DNA of 64,000 bases, taken from the sequence record OR352956.1; one strand, 5' to 3'. The stretch is from Escherichia phage AV126. Made by a program: the position numbers and the translations under genes. Positions within the stretch are counted from its first letter, which is position 1. Each line of letters starts with the position of its first letter. Shown here in pieces: positions 2,664 through 28,898 of this stretch. The notes under the pieces were generated by a model. It did not search any database. It saw nothing but the letters and a program-made list of their open reading frames with translations, and had not been told where the DNA came from.

Positions 2664-4256
2664 TTAACGATCCTCTCTGATTTGATTAATCTTACGAGCA
2701 AGGGCAGCTATAAGCTTATCTTCTTCAGATACAGGAGCCGTGCTCTTACCTAAACGATGCATGTCTAAAATCTCTTGAACAGTCCGGTTCCATTGCAGAC
2801 ATTTAATACAACGTGTATGTGCAACATACAGAAGATTTCGTTCTGATTCTTCAAGACCTACCCACTCACCCTTCTTATCATAATTAGAAGGGAAGTCATT
2901 TGCAACAATAACCTGATCCCATTCCAAACCTTTTGATTTGTGGGCTGTAGTTAAAGTAACTTTAGCCGTTGGAGAGTTACGGTGCATACGTAAAGTGTAT
3001 GCAATATTATTAGCTTTACCAGAAACAACGATGTTTAAAAGTCGTTTTGCATCAGGATCTGATTCTGCACACTCTACAAATTCTTCCCAAGAAGTGTAAG
3101 GGAGAACTGTCTCATGCTTAACTTTGTCCAAATCACCTCTACGTAAAGCATTAACACTATCAACCATAGAAATGAAATCTTTGGTATCTACGTTAATAAT
3201 AATCTCTTCTCCGTTAGCGATTCGGTCCATAGCTTCGAGCAACAAAGTCAAATTCTTACGGAAAATAATAGTGTAAGGTTTACTATAATCTACCACATCA
3301 GAATGAAAACTTCCAGTGACAGTATCATAACCTTTGCCTACCAACGGATGCTTCAGAGGTGAGCGATCAGAAAGGATCGCATTAGCAATGTCCGCAACTT
3401 TAGGACCAAAGCGAAAACAAGCTGTCAGAGGCAACTCAACCCCATATGTAGCTGTTTGCTTCATCATGTTCTGGCTTCCACGGAACTGATAAATACTCTG
3501 AAATTCATCACCCACAACAACAATACGTTTAGCCGATTTAGCATTGCGAAGGATAGACAGGAATGCAGGGTTAACATCCTGGAATTCATCTCCAAAAATA
3601 ATATCGTATCCTAAGTCTTCTTTGCTCAATTCAAAGAGTTTCACATAGGTGTCATGAGTCATAATGGTTTCTGATTTAGGATCAATACGCTCACGCCAAA
3701 GTTGCTTCGCATATTTAACAACTTCATTAATAAGTTTTTGTTCGTTGATGTTTTTACGTTTTAAGTCTGACATGTGCACTTTAGGAAAATGTTTATGTCC
3801 GATATGTTCATCGTCAGAAAACTCATATTTAGCTAAAGTTTGTTTTACCATTAACCCGATCATTGCACGAGTCAGTAGCACTTTACCATTCTTATCGATC
3901 AAGTTCTGAATCTTGAATTTCTTGGCAATCTCACTACCAGTGCCAGCTACGTTAACATATTGACCTTCTGGACGAGATAATTTGTGTCGAAGGTTTTGTG
4001 GAAGACGCTGGTAACAGATAGAATGTAGCGTTCGGCACATAACATTGGGCGGCATTTTACGTCGAGCTTCCTCTGCCATACTTTTGTTAAATGCTAAGTA
4101 TAGAATACTATCATTTGTGCCATTAGCCAACATATACAGCGTTGACGTTTTACCTGATCCAGATTTAGCTTGAATTGTAACGAAACGATTTTCTTGATAC
4201 CCACTTTCAATAGCGTATTGTTCATCGGTAGGTGTAAAACTCAATTGTGTAGACAC
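2664..4256 (-). CDS. UvrD/Rep-like superfamily-1 DNA helicase (530 aa)
   Basis: SF1 motifs in order: AKSGSGKT (Walker A), GDEFQD (motif II), VVGDEFQSIYQFRG (III), TAHKSKGLEWD (V), YVAHTR (VI). Confidence 0.75.
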   Translation of the reverse strand: MSTQLSFTPTDEQYAIESGYQENRFVTIQAKSGSGKTSTLYMLANGTNDSILYLAFNKSMAEEARRKMPPNVMCRTLHSICYQRLPQNLRHKLSRPEGQYVNVAGTGSEIAKKFKIQNLIDKNGKVLLTRAMIGLMVKQTLAKYEFSDDEHIGHKHFPKVHMSDLKRKNINEQKLINEVVKYAKQLWRERIDPKSETIMTHDTYVKLFELSKEDLGYDIIFGDEFQDVNPAFLSILRNAKSAKRIVVVGDEFQSIYQFRGSQNMMKQTATYGVELPLTACFRFGPKVADIANAILSDRSPLKHPLVGKGYDTVTGSFHSDVVDYSKPYTIIFRKNLTLLLEAMDRIANGEEIIINVDTKDFISMVDSVNALRRGDLDKVKHETVLPYTSWEEFVECAESDPDAKRLLNIVVSGKANNIAYTLRMHRNSPTAKVTLTTAHKSKGLEWDQVIVANDFPSNYDKKGEWVGLEESERNLLYVAHTRCIKCLQWNRTVQEILDMHRLGKSTAPVSEEDKLIAALARKINQIREDR

Positions 4257-4270
4257 GTATTTCTCCTCTC

Positions 4271-4786
4271 TTAATAAAAACTCTTGACAATCCTCATCAT
4301 TTCCTTAGCTCTGCTGGCGTAAGGTTCTTTTAGATTAGGTGGCAAATGTGCATTAATGTATCCCATTTGTTTTTCCCATGTCCACTTATCTTTAAATCTT
4401 GGCATGGTGTCTCCTGCTAAACTGTTTTCTTTTCGTGTTTGAATAATCCAATTACATGGAAAATGCACACCACCTTTACGGAAGGGAATATAATGTCCCA
4501 ATGTGAATGCCTTATTGTTCTTTAAACGTCCAGCTAAATTAAGATTAACAATAAGACTACGAAACACGTAGTATTGATAAAGATTGTCAACAGTATATAC
4601 AGAGTAGTATGCTCTAAGTGCATTATCTCTACTAAGATTACCAACATCCAAACTGCACCAGTTTAAATTACTTGGATCGTAGTTGTGATTATCAATCCAT
4701 TCTTCTCTTTCCTCAAATTCTGCATTAACAGCAGACTGCCCTGCTGTAGATACAAAAAGAGAATTTGCATCAAAGAACATACTCAC
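4271..4786 (-). CDS. hypothetical protein (171 aa)
   Basis: ORF co-oriented and tightly packed. Confidence 0.55.
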   Translation of the reverse strand: MSMFFDANSLFVSTAGQSAVNAEFEEREEWIDNHNYDPSNLNWCSLDVGNLSRDNALRAYYSVYTVDNLYQYYVFRSLIVNLNLAGRLKNNKAFTLGHYIPFRKGGVHFPCNWIIQTRKENSLAGDTMPRFKDKWTWEKQMGYINAHLPPNLKEPYASRAKEMMRIVKSFY

Positions 4787-4793
4787 TCCCCCT

Positions 4794-5147
4794 TTAGTTT
4801 ACATCGTTTAGAGCATTACCAATCTTTAAGATAATAACATCGTTAAGAGCTTCTTCTCCATTAAGGCCAGAGAAAGCAGGAGTAACGAAAGTTACCATAT
4901 AATAATGGTCTTCTTGTAGGATTGCGATAACGCCGTCTAGTTTAACATCTCCTGTGAAACGAAAAACTTTCAACTTTTGTTCTAAAGGAAGATCTCCTTC
5001 AACATTTAAAACCATATCTCCGACACCAAACTTTTCTGCCCCGATGTAGATGTAAGCTTGGTCCTCTTTTTTATGATAATACAATGTTGCTTGTTTGTCT
5101 TGTAGTGTTGTGATACCAAACACATCTACATCAATAATATTTTTCAA
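4794..5147 (-). CDS. hypothetical protein (117 aa)
   Basis: ORF co-oriented and tightly packed. Confidence 0.55.
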   Translation of the reverse strand: MKNIIDVDVFGITTLQDKQATLYYHKKEDQAYIYIGAEKFGVGDMVLNVEGDLPLEQKLKVFRFTGDVKLDGVIAILQEDHYYMVTFVTPAFSGLNGEEALNDVIILKIGNALNDVN

Positions 5148-5260
5148 AAAATTCTCCTCTTATTTTGTGTTGACCTTATTTCACATTAACCTGTGGGATA
5201 CAGAGTTGCGAGATCTGTTTAGAACCTTACCAATCCCTGCATGACTACACCCTTCACTAT

Positions 5261-5623
5261 TTAACCTAAACACATACGTGCGATCAGACCCTGGATGAGT
5301 TTATCTGCTTCTTCACGATCATAGTCGGTATCTTCTATACCACCATCTTCGTCACGATAAACTTTACCTTCCAGGTACCCAGCATCGATCAAACCAATAA
5401 TCAAATCAAACTGCCAGCAAGAGTTACCGAAAGGGCGTTTTCCACTGAAACTGTCTTCTTCTTCCCAAAGTGTAGAGAGCAGTCGTCTGAAATATTCACG
5501 CACAGTAACAGTTCCAAGATCATCGTCTTCAAAAACAACATCTAAAGCATCTGGTTCAGCTTTCTCTACAACAGGCACATAACGTTGACCATTAATAACA
5601 ACATCTACAATCGTTTCTCTCAT
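5261..5623 (-). CDS. hypothetical protein (120 aa)
   Basis: ORF; 4-nt overlap with downstream gene. Confidence 0.55.
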   Translation of the reverse strand: MRETIVDVVINGQRYVPVVEKAEPDALDVVFEDDDLGTVTVREYFRRLLSTLWEEEDSFSGKRPFGNSCWQFDLIIGLIDAGYLEGKVYRDEDGGIEDTDYDREEADKLIQGLIARMCLG

Positions 5624-5982
5624 TTTTCCTCCTTCTTGTATTCTAAGAACATGTCAACTTCATAAGCTGTCCGTTCATCAAATTTGCTAGGATCTACTAA
5701 AATAAAAAGTTGTTTATTTATATCTTGAAACTCTTTTACTACAATGTAAAGGTGTTTCTTACAAGAGAAGCCTGTTGCTTGATAAGCATCACCCCAATCA
5801 TCCACACCTTTTAATGTTTCTACATACTTACATTTTATTTTATCTTTACCGTCTTGGTAAAGTGCTTCACCTCCGAACCATGTGAAGAATTTAGTGCGAT
5901 CTGCCCCAACCTTAAAGCCGTCACGAGCAAAAACACCAGCAGAGGCTAATAACAGCAAGGCAAACAGCACTTTTCTCATCAC
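5620..5982 (-). CDS. hypothetical secreted protein (120 aa)
   Basis: N-terminal signal-peptide-like MMRKVLFALLLLASAGVFA. Confidence 0.55.
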   Translation of the reverse strand: MMRKVLFALLLLASAGVFARDGFKVGADRTKFFTWFGGEALYQDGKDKIKCKYVETLKGVDDWGDAYQATGFSCKKHLYIVVKEFQDINKQLFILVDPSKFDERTAYEVDMFLEYKKEEK

Positions 5983-15446: not shown

Positions 15447-15501
15447 TATTTTAACTTTTTTCATTTTTAGAACAAAGGTGTCACTTTGTAGCACAGAAAT
15501 A

Positions 15502-15537
15502 AGGCTCCTACAGCACCGTAGAGAGCCTGTTATTTTG
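15502..15537 (+). terminator. rho-independent terminator candidate
   Basis: AGGCTCCTACAGCACCGTAGAGAGCCT hairpin followed by GTTATTTTG, downstream of NADAR gene. Confidence 0.55.
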
Positions 15538-15670
15538 TCCTATACAAACCCTTGTCTTTTTCAGTTTGCATCACTAGGATTCGATCTGAGTGGGTTCCTG
15601 AAGGTCTGCCAATAAGATTAAAGGTTATCTCAAATTCCCACTACCTATTATCTCAAAAATCCCTCAAATT

Positions 15671-15737
15671 ATTTAAACTTTTTAAGAATTTACAAAAGTG
15701 AAAGTTGAAAACCAAAATTTAAAGTTTAGGAAAAATT
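15671..15737. repeat. ~67-bp AT-rich direct repeat, copy 1
   Basis: ATTTAAACTTTTTAAGAATTTACAAAAGTGAAAGTTGAAAACCAAAATTTAAAGTTTAGGAAAAATT; about 80% identical to copy at 15809-15875. Confidence 0.7.
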
Positions 15738-15808
15738 ATCTTAGAATGTTAGATACAAACAAAACTCAAAAGTCAAGGAAAATTTTAAAAATTTTGCGCG
15801 CCCACAGT

Positions 15809-15875
15809 ATTTAAAGTTTTTTTGCTTTTACAAAAATGAAAGTACAAAAGCAAAATTTAAAGTTTACAAAAATTT
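15809..15875. repeat. ~67-bp AT-rich direct repeat, copy 2
   Basis: ATTTAAAGTTTTTTTGCTTTTACAAAAATGAAAGTACAAAAGCAAAATTTAAAGTTTACAAAAATTT. Confidence 0.7.
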
Positions 15876-15908
15876 ATGCAGGTGGGAATGAGAAGAGTTC
15901 TCATGTGG

Positions 15909-15935
15909 AAATGCAAATGATAATGATTCGCATTT
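15909..15935. promoter_or_regulatory. Fur-box-like palindromic operator
   Basis: AAATGCAAATGATAATGATTCGCATTT; core TGATAATgATTcgCA matches the 7-1-7 Fur consensus TGATAATnATTATCA at 12/14. Confidence 0.45.
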
Positions 15936-15951
15936 AAGTTTATAAACGAGA

Positions 15952-15993
15952 TTGATTCTTATTCAATAAGGTAAATGATAATCATTCTCATTT
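15952..15993 (+). promoter_or_regulatory. sigma70-like promoter overlapped by Fur-box-like operator
   Basis: TTGATT -35, 17-nt spacer, ATGATA/GATAAT -10 region; operator AAATGATAATCATTCTCATTT (13/14 to 7-1-7 Fur consensus) overlaps the -10. Confidence 0.5.
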
Positions 15994-16221
15994 AGAGAAT
16001 GACGCGCAGGGGCGGTGTTTGTCTCGCGCTCCCGTGTCCCCTCGCCATGTAATAAGAATAACAGATCCAACCAGGAAAGCAAGCGATTATTTTATCTTTA
16101 CATTTCTTTACAAATATATAGCGCCCAGCCTACCGGCGATCAACCTTCCAACCAGCGCCCCTGGTATGTTAGCCCCGCCTTTACGCCGTGGGGTGGCGCT
16201 TCCTCTTCTGTATGTAAAACA

Positions 16222-16262
16222 GTATAAGCCCGATCCCTGGGCTTGTCAAGATTATTTTTTGT
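16222..16262. terminator. hairpin plus T-run (possible bidirectional terminator)
   Basis: AAGCCCGATCCCTGGGCTT then GTCAAGATTATTTTTTGTTTTC; just beyond stop of minus ORF 16252..16518; minus sense also reads TTGACA-17-TATACT. Confidence 0.4.
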
Positions 16263-16518
16263 TTTCTTGCCAGGATAGGACACCTAACCAAAAATGCATA
16301 TCGCCCCGCGCCGCTGGCGGGATCTTGCTTTCCCCGCCGCCACTGCAAGCCCATAAATAACCATCAGCAAACGGATCAAAATGTTCTATCTCTTCCACTT
16401 TATGATCGCCCAGGTTGAGAACGGTTTCAACCTTTAAGCCCGTTGCGCTTGCTACCTGGTGCACCGTGCCGCCTTGCCAGCCCAATGAGTGCATAAGGTG
16501 TAATGTAGTATTTGTCAT
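16252..16518 (-). CDS. hypothetical protein (88 aa) in GC-rich island
   Basis: Only minus-strand ORF in the plus-oriented region; GC-rich codon usage unlike flanks; GGCGATACC upstream of ATG. Confidence 0.45.
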   Translation of the reverse strand: MTNTTLHLMHSLGWQGGTVHQVASATGLKVETVLNLGDHKVEEIEHFDPFADGYLWACSGGGESKIPPAARGDMHFWLGVLSWQENKK

Positions 16519-16626
16519 GGTATCGCCCTTTCTTTGATGTGCGCCCTGGTTGGCGCGGTAGAAAGATAATAGCCCTTTTCTTTATATATAGCAAGCAAAA
16601 AGAAAATAAAAAAGATTGAAAAATGG

Positions 16627-26970: not shown

Positions 26971-26983
26971 TCGACAACAAAAC

Positions 26984-27012
26984 AAGGGGCGCACCAAGCG
27001 CCCTTTCTTTTT
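26984..27012 (+). terminator. rho-independent terminator
   Basis: AAGGGGCGCACCAAGCGCCCTTT + CTTTTTG; ends the PeSL island. Confidence 0.8.
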
Positions 27013-27218
27013 GCCTGAACAATGTTGATAGCTTTCGCCTATGAAAAACCGACACAGAACAAAACTGAATAAATCGCGGTATCGAGCTAATCAACCATCA
27101 AACGAATAACCATACATCCCAGGGCAACAGGCTGTTAGAGAGCTATTTAGAGCGGTTAAAATCGATCTACAACCAACAACAAACCATCAAAAACACCCTT
27201 TTACCTCCTTTCTAGTGC

Positions 27219-27237
27219 AATGATAACCATTATCATC
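27219..27237. promoter_or_regulatory. Fur-box-like palindrome
   Basis: AATGATAACCATTATCATC; 13/14 match to TGATAATnATTATCA. Confidence 0.5.
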
Positions 27238-27580
27238 TACCCATGATTATCTATGCAATATAAGCGCATAATTATAATGTTGATAATAGTTCGCAACAAC
27301 TAACCAACAAACAACATAAAACAATAAGCAAACTAATCATAATCAAAGGAATAATAGCAAGATGATTGATAACGACAAACAATCAAACCATGATGAATAC
27401 TAAGCAAGATAACGATAACACGACAAAACAACCAACTAACGAACAATAACAAACGAAACCATTAAAAGATCAACTATTAGCAAAATAGTGTCTATTGCCA
27501 TAATAGTGACTGAATGAAATCATTACAAAACGAATCATTCCAAGGATCATCATTAGCACGCTACGCCGGACACGTAGCGA

Positions 27581-27708
27581 GCTAATAATAAGCCAACTAC
27601 ACCCCAACAATCATAACCATCGGTGACGGTTATTTCTTGTTACTGCGTAGCTTGCAATAATTGCAAGCGTAATGACGCTTACACTTATTGCGCTGGCTTA
27701 TTATTAGC
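27581..27708. repeat. 14-bp perfect inverted repeat pair flanking ~100 bp rich in palindromes
   Basis: GCTAATAATAAGCC at 27581-27594 and its reverse complement GGCTTATTATTAGC at 27695-27708; internal palindrome CTTGCAATAATTGCAAG (27651-27668); adjacent hairpin GCTACGCCGGACACGTAGC. Confidence 0.55.
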
Positions 27709-27990
27709 ATTATATGTAATTACCAAGATCATAACATTAGCGCAATAACAATAATCATTACAATAATTACATAAGGAAACAATTAGCATAGCAATAATTA
27801 TGGGGGCAATGGGAGGATGATTATCATCATTCCGATACATTGCACACTATGCACATAATAAGATAAAAAGCAATAATCTTGGGGGCGAAATGTTACCGCC
27901 ACAGGCGGGAATGTTGAGCATCTTCTCTTAAACGTAAATAAAATCAGAAAATTCTTGATTTATTTTAGTTTTTATGTTAATAAACGTTTA

Positions 27991-28008
27991 AATAATAATC
28001 ATTCTCAT
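27991..28008. promoter_or_regulatory. Fur-box-like site
   Basis: AATAATAATCATTCTCAT; shares the 14-mer ATAATCATTCTCAT with the site at 15973-15993. Confidence 0.45.
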
Positions 28009-28148
28009 ATAAATAATAGTCTGCTTGTCATGAGCGGGATTAGTTGACATTGTTCCGTCATATGATGAAGTTGCCAAGCCATTGATAAATAAGTGTTTGT
28101 GTGATTTATAATCAAGTGGCCCACCTTGTCGCTACGTTGGCATGAGCC

Positions 28149-28190
28149 TTGCATAAGTCATTGAATACGAATGATAATTATTCTCATTCG
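28149..28190 (+). promoter_or_regulatory. sigma70-like promoter overlapped by Fur-box-like palindrome
   Basis: TTGCAT -35, ~18-nt spacer, GATAAT -10; 21-bp near-palindrome GAATGATAATTATTCTCATTC (13/14 to 7-1-7 Fur consensus) over the -10. Confidence 0.5.
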
Positions 28191-28529
28191 CATGATATTT
28201 GGGAATTGTCGCTGCGTGGACCTGACGGCCCGAAAATTCGCGTTAAGCACTTCTTACGTATGCGCCATGATTTTTGCCATATCATATTGATTCTATTAGA
28301 TATTCTTGCCATGATTGCCATGAAACAGGGTGTCCCGAAATAATCTCTCCCCGTAGATATTTTGGGTTACTTTTTATACAAGAGTGGGGTGTCAAAAATA
28401 ATCGGTATATATGGGATAATTGATAGGAATCCCCTATGATAATTCGATTGTAATTCCCTAAGATTGATCGTATGATGTTGGTGATTGATGATTGCCATGA
28501 AAGATGGCTAACGATGAGAGGAGATTATC

Positions 28530-28898
28530 ATGCAAGAGAGTAAAAATATTCCGTTGAGCAGTGCAGCATTGATTCAATTCTACAAAGCATGGATGGCTGA
28601 TCACTACAGCATGGATCGCACGGAGAATGGACTGTGTTTATGTATTCATCATTTTGTGCGATCTCATCTTATGAAAGATGTGGAGAATCCCCGATGGTAT
28701 GCCGACATAATAGATAGCTTGTTGTTTGAGATGCGTGCTCAGTTCAAAGACGCTGGCATTGATACGTGCGCACCCTTCAACACTGGATATGCGGATTACT
28801 TGATTGAAGTGGAAGATAAAATGTGTCACCTGAATCCACTTCGCATTCAGTGGGTGAAAGATCGCATTGAAGATGCAAATAATGCTTGCATTGAATAA
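28530..28898 (+). CDS. paralogous family A protein, copy 1 (122 aa)
   Basis: GAGAGGAG SD; shares FY..W..GLC..PF..H.N..R..WVKDR pattern with ORFs at 31968, 35294, 38592, 39897. Confidence 0.6.
   Translation: MQESKNIPLSSAALIQFYKAWMADHYSMDRTENGLCLCIHHFVRSHLMKDVENPRWYADIIDSLLFEMRAQFKDAGIDTCAPFNTGYADYLIEVEDKMCHLNPLRIQWVKDRIEDANNACIE

Follow-up and report, generated by a model that had tools for sequence, protein, structure and literature searches.

The 1.5-kb gene-free stretch at positions 26971-28529 of Escherichia phage AV126 (sequence record OR352956.1; all positions refer to the window, that is, the whole 64,000-nucleotide stretch of DNA analyzed here) is, on balance, probably the genome-end, or concatemer-junction, region of a linear, non-permuted Phapecoctavirus genome with short direct terminal repeats (DTRs). 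We hold this reading, inclusive of the mechanism outlined below, with moderate confidence; the stretch is identified as the genome ends of AV126 because the DTR records and annotations of related phages map to it. By its sequence, the 64-kb window is that of a phAPEC8-like Escherichia coli myovirus (Phapecoctavirus, Stephanstirmvirinae; genome of approximately 150 kb), and the 1.7 kb around the region shows 92-96% identity to about 60 phAPEC8-like phages. An earlier interpretation made from the letters alone (hereinafter, the sequence-only reading) had proposed an iron-regulated leader or small RNA (sRNA) locus, a decoy titrating Fur, or a replication or recombination site. The principal identity of the region, physical genome ends with a 329-bp DTR, was not among these candidates; the last of them came closest and is supported if it is taken to mean a region of concatemer junction and packaging.

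Several GenBank records of related phages open or close inside the gene-free region. At either end of the Schickermooser phage record, there is an exact 329-bp repeat that maps onto the AV126 DTR (Table 1), and a search with the 329-bp query retrieved at least 10 independent records in which the DTR makes up positions 1-329 or the final 329 bases, often both, with two copies at the record ends of Mt1B1_P17, BI-EHEC and WPEC1/2/4/6. As expected of fixed, non-permuted termini, the same end nucleotide is shared by at least 10 records and its position is homologous in three genera, the independently determined ends of Phapecoctavirus, Justusliebigvirus (phi92) and Klebsiella phage phi1_175008 falling at homologous positions. 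The same sequence is present at both ends in close relatives (Schickermooser, and 343 bp in phi92 and phi1_175008), and the RefSeq record of phi92 has annotated DTR-L and DTR-R of 343 bp; the AV126 window holds one copy, as expected of a collapsed assembly. Across the genus, the DTR is 96-99% identical, a degree of conservation that exceeds that of its flanks.

That genomes of this phage group terminate in a short DTR was known before: the terminal repeat of Schickermooser is 328 bp according to Korf et al. (PMC6563267), that of BME3 was determined as 342 bp by PhageTerm (PMC12210895), and Stephanstirmvirinae genomes have been reported in a 2025 paper to end in direct terminal repeats (PMC12695924). 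What appears to be undescribed is the cut-site motif shared by the two boundaries, a covarying minus-strand element, Fur-like sites in the repeat and a conserved G-poor tract; in the related GenBank records examined, none of the four is annotated. The gap consists of three parts, the non-coding right end (26971-27916), the DTR and the left-end leader, and the order in the concatemer or an assembled contig is the last right-arm gene, a terminator, approximately 900 bp of non-coding right end, the 329-bp DTR, the 284-bp leader and the first left-end gene. A gap of 1.5-2 kb with an identical module order is kept in every genus compared, and the comparison with the equivalent intergenic regions of related phages, which the sequence-only reading had suggested, shows that the gap, the DTR, the structured element and the Fur-like sites are all conserved.

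The left end starts with AGCAC and is preceded by ...TGTTG, and the right end stops at ...CGCGTT(A), with AGCAC next. Both boundaries carry the direct motif GTTR^AGCAC (in a longer form, GTTR^AGCAY.TYCT), which has no further match in the 64 kb; the count of this motif alone is not significant (0.88 expected by chance), but its coincidence with both mapped ends is. A GC hairpin of 5-9 bp, located 6-9 nt ahead of the left cut, is kept in four lineages with unrelated sequences (arms CCGCC/GGCGG, ATCGC/GCGAT, TAGCGC/GCGCTA, GCCCAC/GTGGGC and TATACCGC/GCGGTATA), and in Justusliebigvirus, CTATTTGTTG iterons take its place. At the right DTR boundary, no hairpin beyond those of shuffled sequences was found. 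The spacer that precedes the left boundary is hypervariable at 27750-27900, even within the genus: this segment is 43-50% identical to phAPEC8 versus 90-98% identical to ETEC-TG, with flanks above 95% in both, a pattern that suggests cassette replacement beside the cut site.

Table 1. Features of the genome-end region of phage AV126 (positions in the 64-kb window)
Feature	Position	Strand	Remarks
GC-rich stem-loop with T-run, intrinsic terminator closing the right-arm early operon	26984-27006		also predicted on the minus strand, 27003-26987
Two cross-genus conserved islands: ATAG..CTAT inverted repeat (27026-27048) and GAATAAATCGCGGTATCGAGCTAATCAA (27064-27095)	27026-27095		cross-genus alignment
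A+C-rich, G-depleted tract	27100-27480	+	core 27161-27460: 9.3% G, 70% A+C
Fur-like site 1	27216-27237		core 27221-27235 TGATAACCATTATCA, 13/14 to 7-1-7 consensus
Operator-like module	27216-27292		site 1, TATGCA..GCATA palindrome (27253-27270), decayed second site (27272-27292)
Five-helix structured element, ~160 nt	27548-27708	-	RNAalifold consensus, covariation, G.U strand bias
Variable spacer	27709-27916		168-283 bp in relatives; includes repeats AGCAATAATnnTGGGGGC (27790-27807, 27869-27886)
GC hairpin CCGCC-ACA-GGCGG	27896-27908		ends 8 nt before left DTR cut
Left boundary motif GTTG^AGCATCTTCT, candidate cleavage/nicking site	27913-27926	+	homologous position in three genera
DTR, 329 bp	27917-28245		left genome end begins at 27917, right genome end closes at 28245
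Fur-like site 2	27988-28008		core 27993-28007 TAATAATCATTCTCA, 12/14; ~75 bp inside left DTR boundary
Fur-like palindrome, site 3 (CGAATGATAATTATTCTCATTCG)	28168-28191		core 28172-28186 TGATAATTATTCTCA, 13/14; ~55-75 bp inside right DTR boundary
Right boundary motif GTTA^AGCACTTCTT, direct repeat of left motif	28242-28255	+	with left motif, only two matches in 64 kb
Leader of first left-end gene, 284 bp	28246-28529	+	ribosome-binding site at ~28517-28523
TTGCCATGA perfect tandem	28306-28323	+	genus-specific
Leader conserved block	28385-28432	+	blocks conserved across genera
Leader 24-bp tandem	28415-28464	+	
Promoter-like TTGTAA-N17-TATGAT	28448-28476	+	first gene's own

The five-helix element, which folds on the minus strand alone, is conserved across all genera. 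Its closing stem P1 of 14-15 bp (27708-27694/27595-27581) encloses the hairpin P2, which has a variable tip, and P3-P4, and is followed by the 3' hairpin P5 at 27580-27558. For 16 distinct homologs, RNAalifold yields -66.8 kcal/mol and 53 pairs on the minus strand versus -49.3 kcal/mol and 45 pairs on the plus strand. The 53 minus-strand pairs are formed in 99.9% of the alignment cells, 15 of them with compensatory double changes, and covariation reaches 0.261, compared with 0.105 in shuffles (0/500) and at most 0.055 for slid partners; mirrored on the plus strand, the same 53 pairs are formed in 90.0% of the cells. When copies from IMG/VR and metagenomes are added, the resulting 24 distinct sequences, in an alignment that is model-fitted and hence favours the structure, give 99.5% paired cells, 16 compensatory pairs and a covariation of 0.267, the value for slid partners staying at or below 0.058 over both alignments. 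On the minus strand, G.U pairs, four of them invariant, account for 123 cells distributed over 13 pair positions; on the plus strand, there are none. The single-sequence fold matches the consensus (-77.8 kcal/mol and z = -8.6 as RNA; z = -10.3 as DNA; -57.9 kcal/mol for the plus strand), and a covariance model finds a single copy in the window, at 179.6 bits, with at most 30 bits on the plus strand and no further copies in the 64 kb. The perfect inverted repeat of 14 bp that the sequence-only reading had picked out is present, is perfect and is actually 15 bp long (27581-27595/27694-27708, 100% complementary), and the palindrome CTTGCAATAATTGCAAG that it was said to bracket is found at 27651-27667; the repeats, however, are helices of one minus-strand element rather than brackets of a DNA palindrome.

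The element thus displays the compensatory changes and the strand-specific G.U pairing of a structured RNA, but corresponds to no described RNA family: Rfam 15 gave no match at E<=1 over 25-30 kb and none at the gathering score over the whole window. We found no description of the five-helix element in the literature. Among candidate distant copies, that in Av-05 (Vequintavirinae) is at best a putative homolog, the covariance-model match being only 15 bits and the multi-hairpin found there, although analogous, unalignable; FBKp34 gave no covariance-model match; and three metagenome contigs with the core palindrome turned out to be chance matches in unrelated GC-rich DNA. In Av-05, the terminator block of approximately 110 bp is followed by a gene-free gap of approximately 1.9 kb (3972-5888), in which a minus-strand multi-hairpin (4460-4640; z = -4.8), closed by a 17-bp inverted repeat and including GTCGCTACGCGAC-type hairpins, occupies the same relative position and may be an analogous end-region element.

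The distance between the element and the left DTR boundary is 168-283 bp in 15 genomes (approximately 210 bp in AV126), which is where a hairpin of the T7 type would be expected. In T7, the repeat must be duplicated, by nicking with displacement or by primed synthesis, and a hairpin intermediate has been seen (PMC4281155; also PMC3276506). Because the neighbourhood of the element to the repeat is fixed and because of this T7 precedent, we tentatively suggest, at somewhat less than an even chance, that the element serves as a single-strand priming or fold-back signal for duplication of the repeat. Under this scenario, a packaging nuclease would recognize GTTR^AGCAC at both boundaries and introduce staggered, strand-specific nicks 329 bp apart. 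From a minus-strand nick at the right boundary, synthesis would extend leftwards and displace the minus strand of the DTR, the spacer and the element; the displaced strand would then fold into the five-helix element approximately 210 bp inside the right end, and priming at the element, with copying to the 5' end, would presumably create the right end at 28245. The repeat would be copied in the process, and every packaged genome would obtain a full DTR, in a T7-style repeat duplication.

Much of the same evidence is compatible with a different function, namely, that the element is the gene for a minus-strand structured non-coding RNA (ncRNA) of approximately 160-180 nt, which, as an RNA, would exert its effect in trans or in cis, for instance on regulation, anti-defence or packaging; in a variant of this proposal, a longer G+U-rich RNA might carry the element in its 5' part and extend as far as the bidirectional terminator at ~26987. 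The covariation, the confinement of G.U pairs to the minus strand, the better minus-strand fold (by 20 kcal/mol) and the variable length of the P2 tip, typical of RNA helices, all speak for an RNA, as do the location of the best sigma70-like site 10-45 nt upstream in three clades, the local GC skew, which has the sign of a minus-strand transcription unit, and the predicted minus-strand terminator. However, the promoter-like sites upstream are no better than the shuffle background in the window and in phAPEC8, there is no terminator directly after P5, and Rfam offers no family. We consider an ncRNA gene a serious possibility, only slightly less likely than the single-strand signal. As a sigma70 promoter upstream of the element, no candidate rises above shuffles in this genus, and we found no transcriptomes of these phages in the literature.

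The second conserved component of the genome ends is a set of palindromes resembling the Fur box. The three sites singled out by the sequence-only reading lie within a base or two of where it had placed them and match the 7-1-7 consensus (TGATAATnATTATCA) at 13/14, 13/14 and 12/14. With the 19-bp Fur box (GATAATGATAATCATTATC) used for scoring, the gap contains 6 sites of at least 14/19 (3.8 per kb) versus 9 in the other 62.4 kb (0.14 per kb), an approximately 27-fold enrichment; the shuffled controls that had been called for predict 0.13-0.24 such sites in the gap, and in 0 of 1000 shuffles was the observed number reached. The AV126 sites score 14-15/19 and 12-13/14, and those of relatives up to 17/19 and 14/14, Justusliebigvirus having TGATAATCATTATCA (14/14) and one 17/19 site; by the same metric, the E. 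coli operators of fhuA and fepA-fes reach 14/19 and 13/19, respectively, and a 15-nt core (ATAATAATCATTCTC) is identical between site 2 and the region of the fhuA operator. Despite diverged flanks, the DTR contains two sites in all genera, one at ~75-100 bp from its left boundary and the other at ~55-75 bp from its right boundary, and one or two further sites are found 640-880 bp upstream, often paired 58 bp apart; the counterpart of the decayed second site of AV126 scores 16/19 in Justusliebigvirus and lies 58 bp from the first. Given the enrichment, the cross-genus conservation and scores equal to those of the fhuA and fepA-fes operators, assignment to the Fur operators is supported at the level of sequence. 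Host Fur appears to be the most likely binder of these palindromes, a view to which we give close to an even chance, and binding would make the genome-end promoters iron-responsive. The literature search on Fur boxes in phage repeats yielded nothing relevant.

The proposal that the gene at 28530 is preceded by an iron-regulated leader or sRNA locus on the plus strand, under Fur control at TTGCAT-N18-GATAAT (28149-28178), draws on real, enriched and conserved sites that score at least as high as those of fhuA and fepA-fes. The two hexamers of this promoter exist, and GATAAT is overlapped by site 3 as the sequence-only reading stated, but TTGCAT is not conserved in the other genera while the Fur-like site is; GATAAT hexamers recur inside Fur-like sites with no conserved -35. 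Moreover, the 28530 gene has a promoter-like site of its own, the Fur-like site sits inside the DTR and hence at both genome ends, and plus-strand structure or a terminator that would define an sRNA is absent, all of which makes this explanation unlikely. We are similarly doubtful of a Fur sink (decoy) on replicating phage DNA or of a role of Fur or a phage protein as an architectural mark of the DTR for terminase, like that of IHF at lambda cos. Three strong 7-1-7-type sites in the gap (within the six of at least 14/19) plus two at 15.9 kb, their placement in all genera, roughly symmetric at some 75 bp in from either DTR boundary, and the recurrent 58-bp pairing fit such roles, but titration would require many genome copies relative to the Fur pool.

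A second ORF-free (open reading frame-free) stretch of approximately 1.2 kb, at 15447-16626, contains AT-rich aaatttaaagttt repeats (~15715-15870) and two Fur-like palindromes exactly 58 bp apart, at 15913-15931 (14/19) and 15971-15989 (GTAAATGATAATCATTCTC, 16/19); pairs of Fur-like sites with this 58-bp spacing are seen again close to the genome end of other genera. This stretch may be another regulatory region or a replication origin.

The right end of the genome opens with an intrinsic terminator that is annotated in phAPEC8 and Schickermooser and is part of a block of ~110 bp conserved even in Av-05 and FBKp34. Beyond it, strand composition is strongly biased, as the sequence-only reading had claimed: over 27000-27600, the plus-strand GC skew is -0.22 to -0.31 and the AT skew +0.19 to +0.51, and the segment 27161-27460 is the 300-nt extreme of the entire 64 kb for both G-poorness and A+C content (99th percentile of A+C, 60%). 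The G depletion of the tract is conserved in all genera, whereas its sequence is not; special constraint on the tract was considered and rejected, its 94-100% identity to phiWec phages reflecting a mosaic block that includes gp17. The plus strand between ~27160 and 27500, with C at about 20%, G at about 9-10% and no ORF, has the composition of a rut-type site. Conceivably, the tract keeps plus-strand read-through past the intrinsic terminator out of the junction in a rut-like manner and/or records frequent single-strandedness of the minus strand; a C-to-T bias on that strand is suggested because the tract combines an excess of A with a deficit of G, as expected if the strand is often unpaired. 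The composition fits this bias and an unstructured, C>G, rut-like insulator equally.

An AT-rich tract next to hairpins also brings to mind a replication origin. The region is AT-rich (about 30-36% GC) and strongly asymmetric, its cumulative skew passes through a local minimum at ~27.6-27.7 kb, and priming could take place at the structured single-strand element. However, DnaA-box-like matches (at most 1 mismatch) are at background, 4 in 1.56 kb against 1.27 per kb window-wide, with no enrichment in the A+C-rich tract; there is a single IHF match; the direct repeats, most of them genus-specific, are short; the skew inverts only locally, since plus-strand genes continue on either side; and the non-coding region at 15.4-16.6 kb is a second candidate. 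It is thus improbable that the region is, or contains, an origin, and DnaA boxes and IHF sites were discarded as features of the gap, being present at background frequency.

The gap is non-coding by all tests applied, in agreement with the sequence-only reading. No ORF in 26971-28529 exceeds 65 aa, and the 64-aa ORF mentioned earlier is present at 28149-28343 but is broken in phiWec179/190. The equivalent gap is unannotated in phAPEC8 (where it lies between gp17 and gp18, with only a predicted terminator), phiWec179/190, alia, ECGD1 and others. The small ORFs of the gap (at least 30 aa, checked in relatives) are broken in the 78%-identical phiWec179/190, except for one 39-aa ORF with a TTG start that is kept within DNA that is 97-100% identical anyway, and 3-nt periodicity is absent from the tract (0.59 vs 0.65 in shuffles; 5.1 vs 0.73 in the neighbouring gene). 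Hidden small genes or a protein-coding gene were rejected on these grounds, as were a recent pseudogene or otherwise decayed gene, for lack of the period-3 signal, and a micro-ORF of 9 codons on the minus strand, preceded by a perfect AAGGAGG (about 27211-27170), which is not retained in phiWec190; known RNA families and tRNAs were not found. In the records of ETEC-TG, Tr1, FKP3 and phi1_175008, 'hypothetical proteins' of 30-80 aa, many on the minus strand, are called across the terminal non-coding region including the structured element. Because the equivalent ORFs of the window lack conservation in relatives, such calls are probably artefacts of gene prediction. It is highly improbable that the whole region consists of decayed genes or is a neutral spacer with chance motifs. 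The hypervariable segment at 27750-27900 and the genus-specific repeats do behave as a neutral spacer would, but the constant module order of a 1.5-2 kb gap in every genus, the covariation of the element and the conservation of the boundary motif and the Fur-like sites do not, and decayed genes would be at odds with the missing periodicity.

In the leader, TTGCCATGA occurs again within 28488-28507; the iterons of this sequence noted previously do exist, at both places, but are genus-specific and not deeply conserved. The first left-end gene (28530-28898) is not a homolog of phAPEC8 gp18, which occupies the same position (about 50% nucleotide identity), and the segment 28354-28597, which includes the 5' end of this gene, is approximately 90% identical to Justusliebigvirus muut; the sequences indicate that the first injected-end gene has been exchanged between genera in a mosaic manner. 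The genes flanking the gap have no Pfam match and fall only into PHROGs of unknown function.

The phage's own 'PHIRE promoter' motif is absent from the gap. This 20-nt motif (GTAGGGCGGCAATGGTGCCG), which bears that annotation in phAPEC8, is present in 8 plus-strand copies in the window (16663, 18191, 19937, 20793, 21226, 21977, 23208 and 24692). In phAPEC8, sigma70-like -10 hexamers immediately precede it, and it is able to fold into the stem-loop CGGCA-ATGG-TGCCG; because of this position and the small stem-loop, it looks like a 5'-UTR (untranslated region) hairpin of early transcripts, reminiscent of the T4-type promoter-early stem-loop cassettes, rather than a promoter. Among the GenBank records that match the region (MG065650, MG065645, MG065689 and others) are some of 'Campylobacter phages' (host, C. 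jejuni) and single ones of 'Pseudomonas' and 'Acinetobacter' phages, the Campylobacter B15 record being 93-99% identical and others matching at Justusliebigvirus-like identity; the host labels of these records look doubtful.

Several observations weigh against the interpretation of the region as a genome end that operates through the above mechanism. The termini of AV126 itself are placed by homology. Recognition of the boundaries is apparently not uniform, because the right boundary and the left boundary of Justusliebigvirus are without a hairpin. The G.T pairs that the element would form as DNA, including the four invariant ones, are tolerated better in RNA, which favours an ncRNA. The high phiWec identity of the G-poor tract is that of its mosaic block and is no sign of special constraint. 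As regards the iron response, no consistently conserved promoter overlaps the Fur-like sites, and a phage-encoded protein could bind them instead of Fur. The most far-reaching interpretation combines a new class of structured signal (an ncRNA or a single-stranded DNA (ssDNA) priming or fold-back site) at the genome ends of the subfamily, that is, of large E. coli, Klebsiella and Citrobacter phages, needed for repeat regeneration or packaging, with genuine host Fur operators in the DTR that provide an iron response; we regard this combination as rather unlikely to hold in full.

DTRs are reported routinely, mostly as a length, and their recognition, cutting and duplication are understood in depth only in T7-like podoviruses. 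The region described here offers a concrete, testable genome-end anatomy for a large group of therapeutic candidates, the relatives of phAPEC8 and phi92, in which the cut motif common to the two repeat boundaries and a lineage-variable hairpin next to one cut are accompanied, ~210 bp in from the right end, by a structure that covaries strongly and is specific to one strand. Should Fur bind the Fur-like sites, the iron status of the host would be linked to the ends of a virulent phage genome, which would be relevant to how the phage behaves at iron-limited infection sites. On the practical side, the region shows annotators where the genomes of this group should start.

In comparison with the DTRs of other Stephanstirmvirinae (phi92, Schickermooser, BME3), the AV126 repeat itself is no different: it is homologous, has the same boundaries, is 96-99% identical within the genus and likewise lies between the gp17-like and the first left-end genes; the published work and record annotations examined give only the length of the repeat. 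The Fur-like sites have match scores comparable to those of the E. coli fhuA and fepA-fes operators and share the 15-nt core with fhuA, but are located in a terminal repeat and terminal non-coding DNA, and, with the arms GCGAA...TTCGC on their flanks, form a palindrome longer than the Fur box.

For the structured element, three systems come to mind. The packaging RNA (pRNA) of phi29 is encoded next to a genome end and is, as the element may be, a structured RNA of ~170 nt specified near the terminus of a linear phage genome; the AV126 element, however, has no Rfam match and belongs to another phage family and packaging system. The ssi-type signals, such as the complementary-strand origins of G4 and M13 and plasmid ssi, are about 140-170 nt long, contain several hairpins and act on one strand when single-stranded, and in size, multiple hairpins and putative one-strand function, by description rather than by sequence, the element resembles them. 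Such elements belong to ssDNA replicons and, to our knowledge, none has been described at the end of a DTR myovirus. The T7/T3 junction combines a 160-bp terminal repeat, flanking short-repeat arrays, a hairpin intermediate and pac signals (PMC4281155, PMC3276506). Shared with AV126 are the short DTR in a non-coding junction, the flanking short repeats and, a few hundred bp in from the right end, an element of the inverted-repeat or hairpin type. Where exactly the hairpin lies in T7 was reportedly determined by Chung, Nardone and Hinkle (1990). By contrast, the two junctions have no sequence homology, AV126 is a 150-kb myovirus that uses the host RNA polymerase, and its element is a five-helix, strand-specific and covarying structure, whereas that of T7 is a simple inverted repeat.

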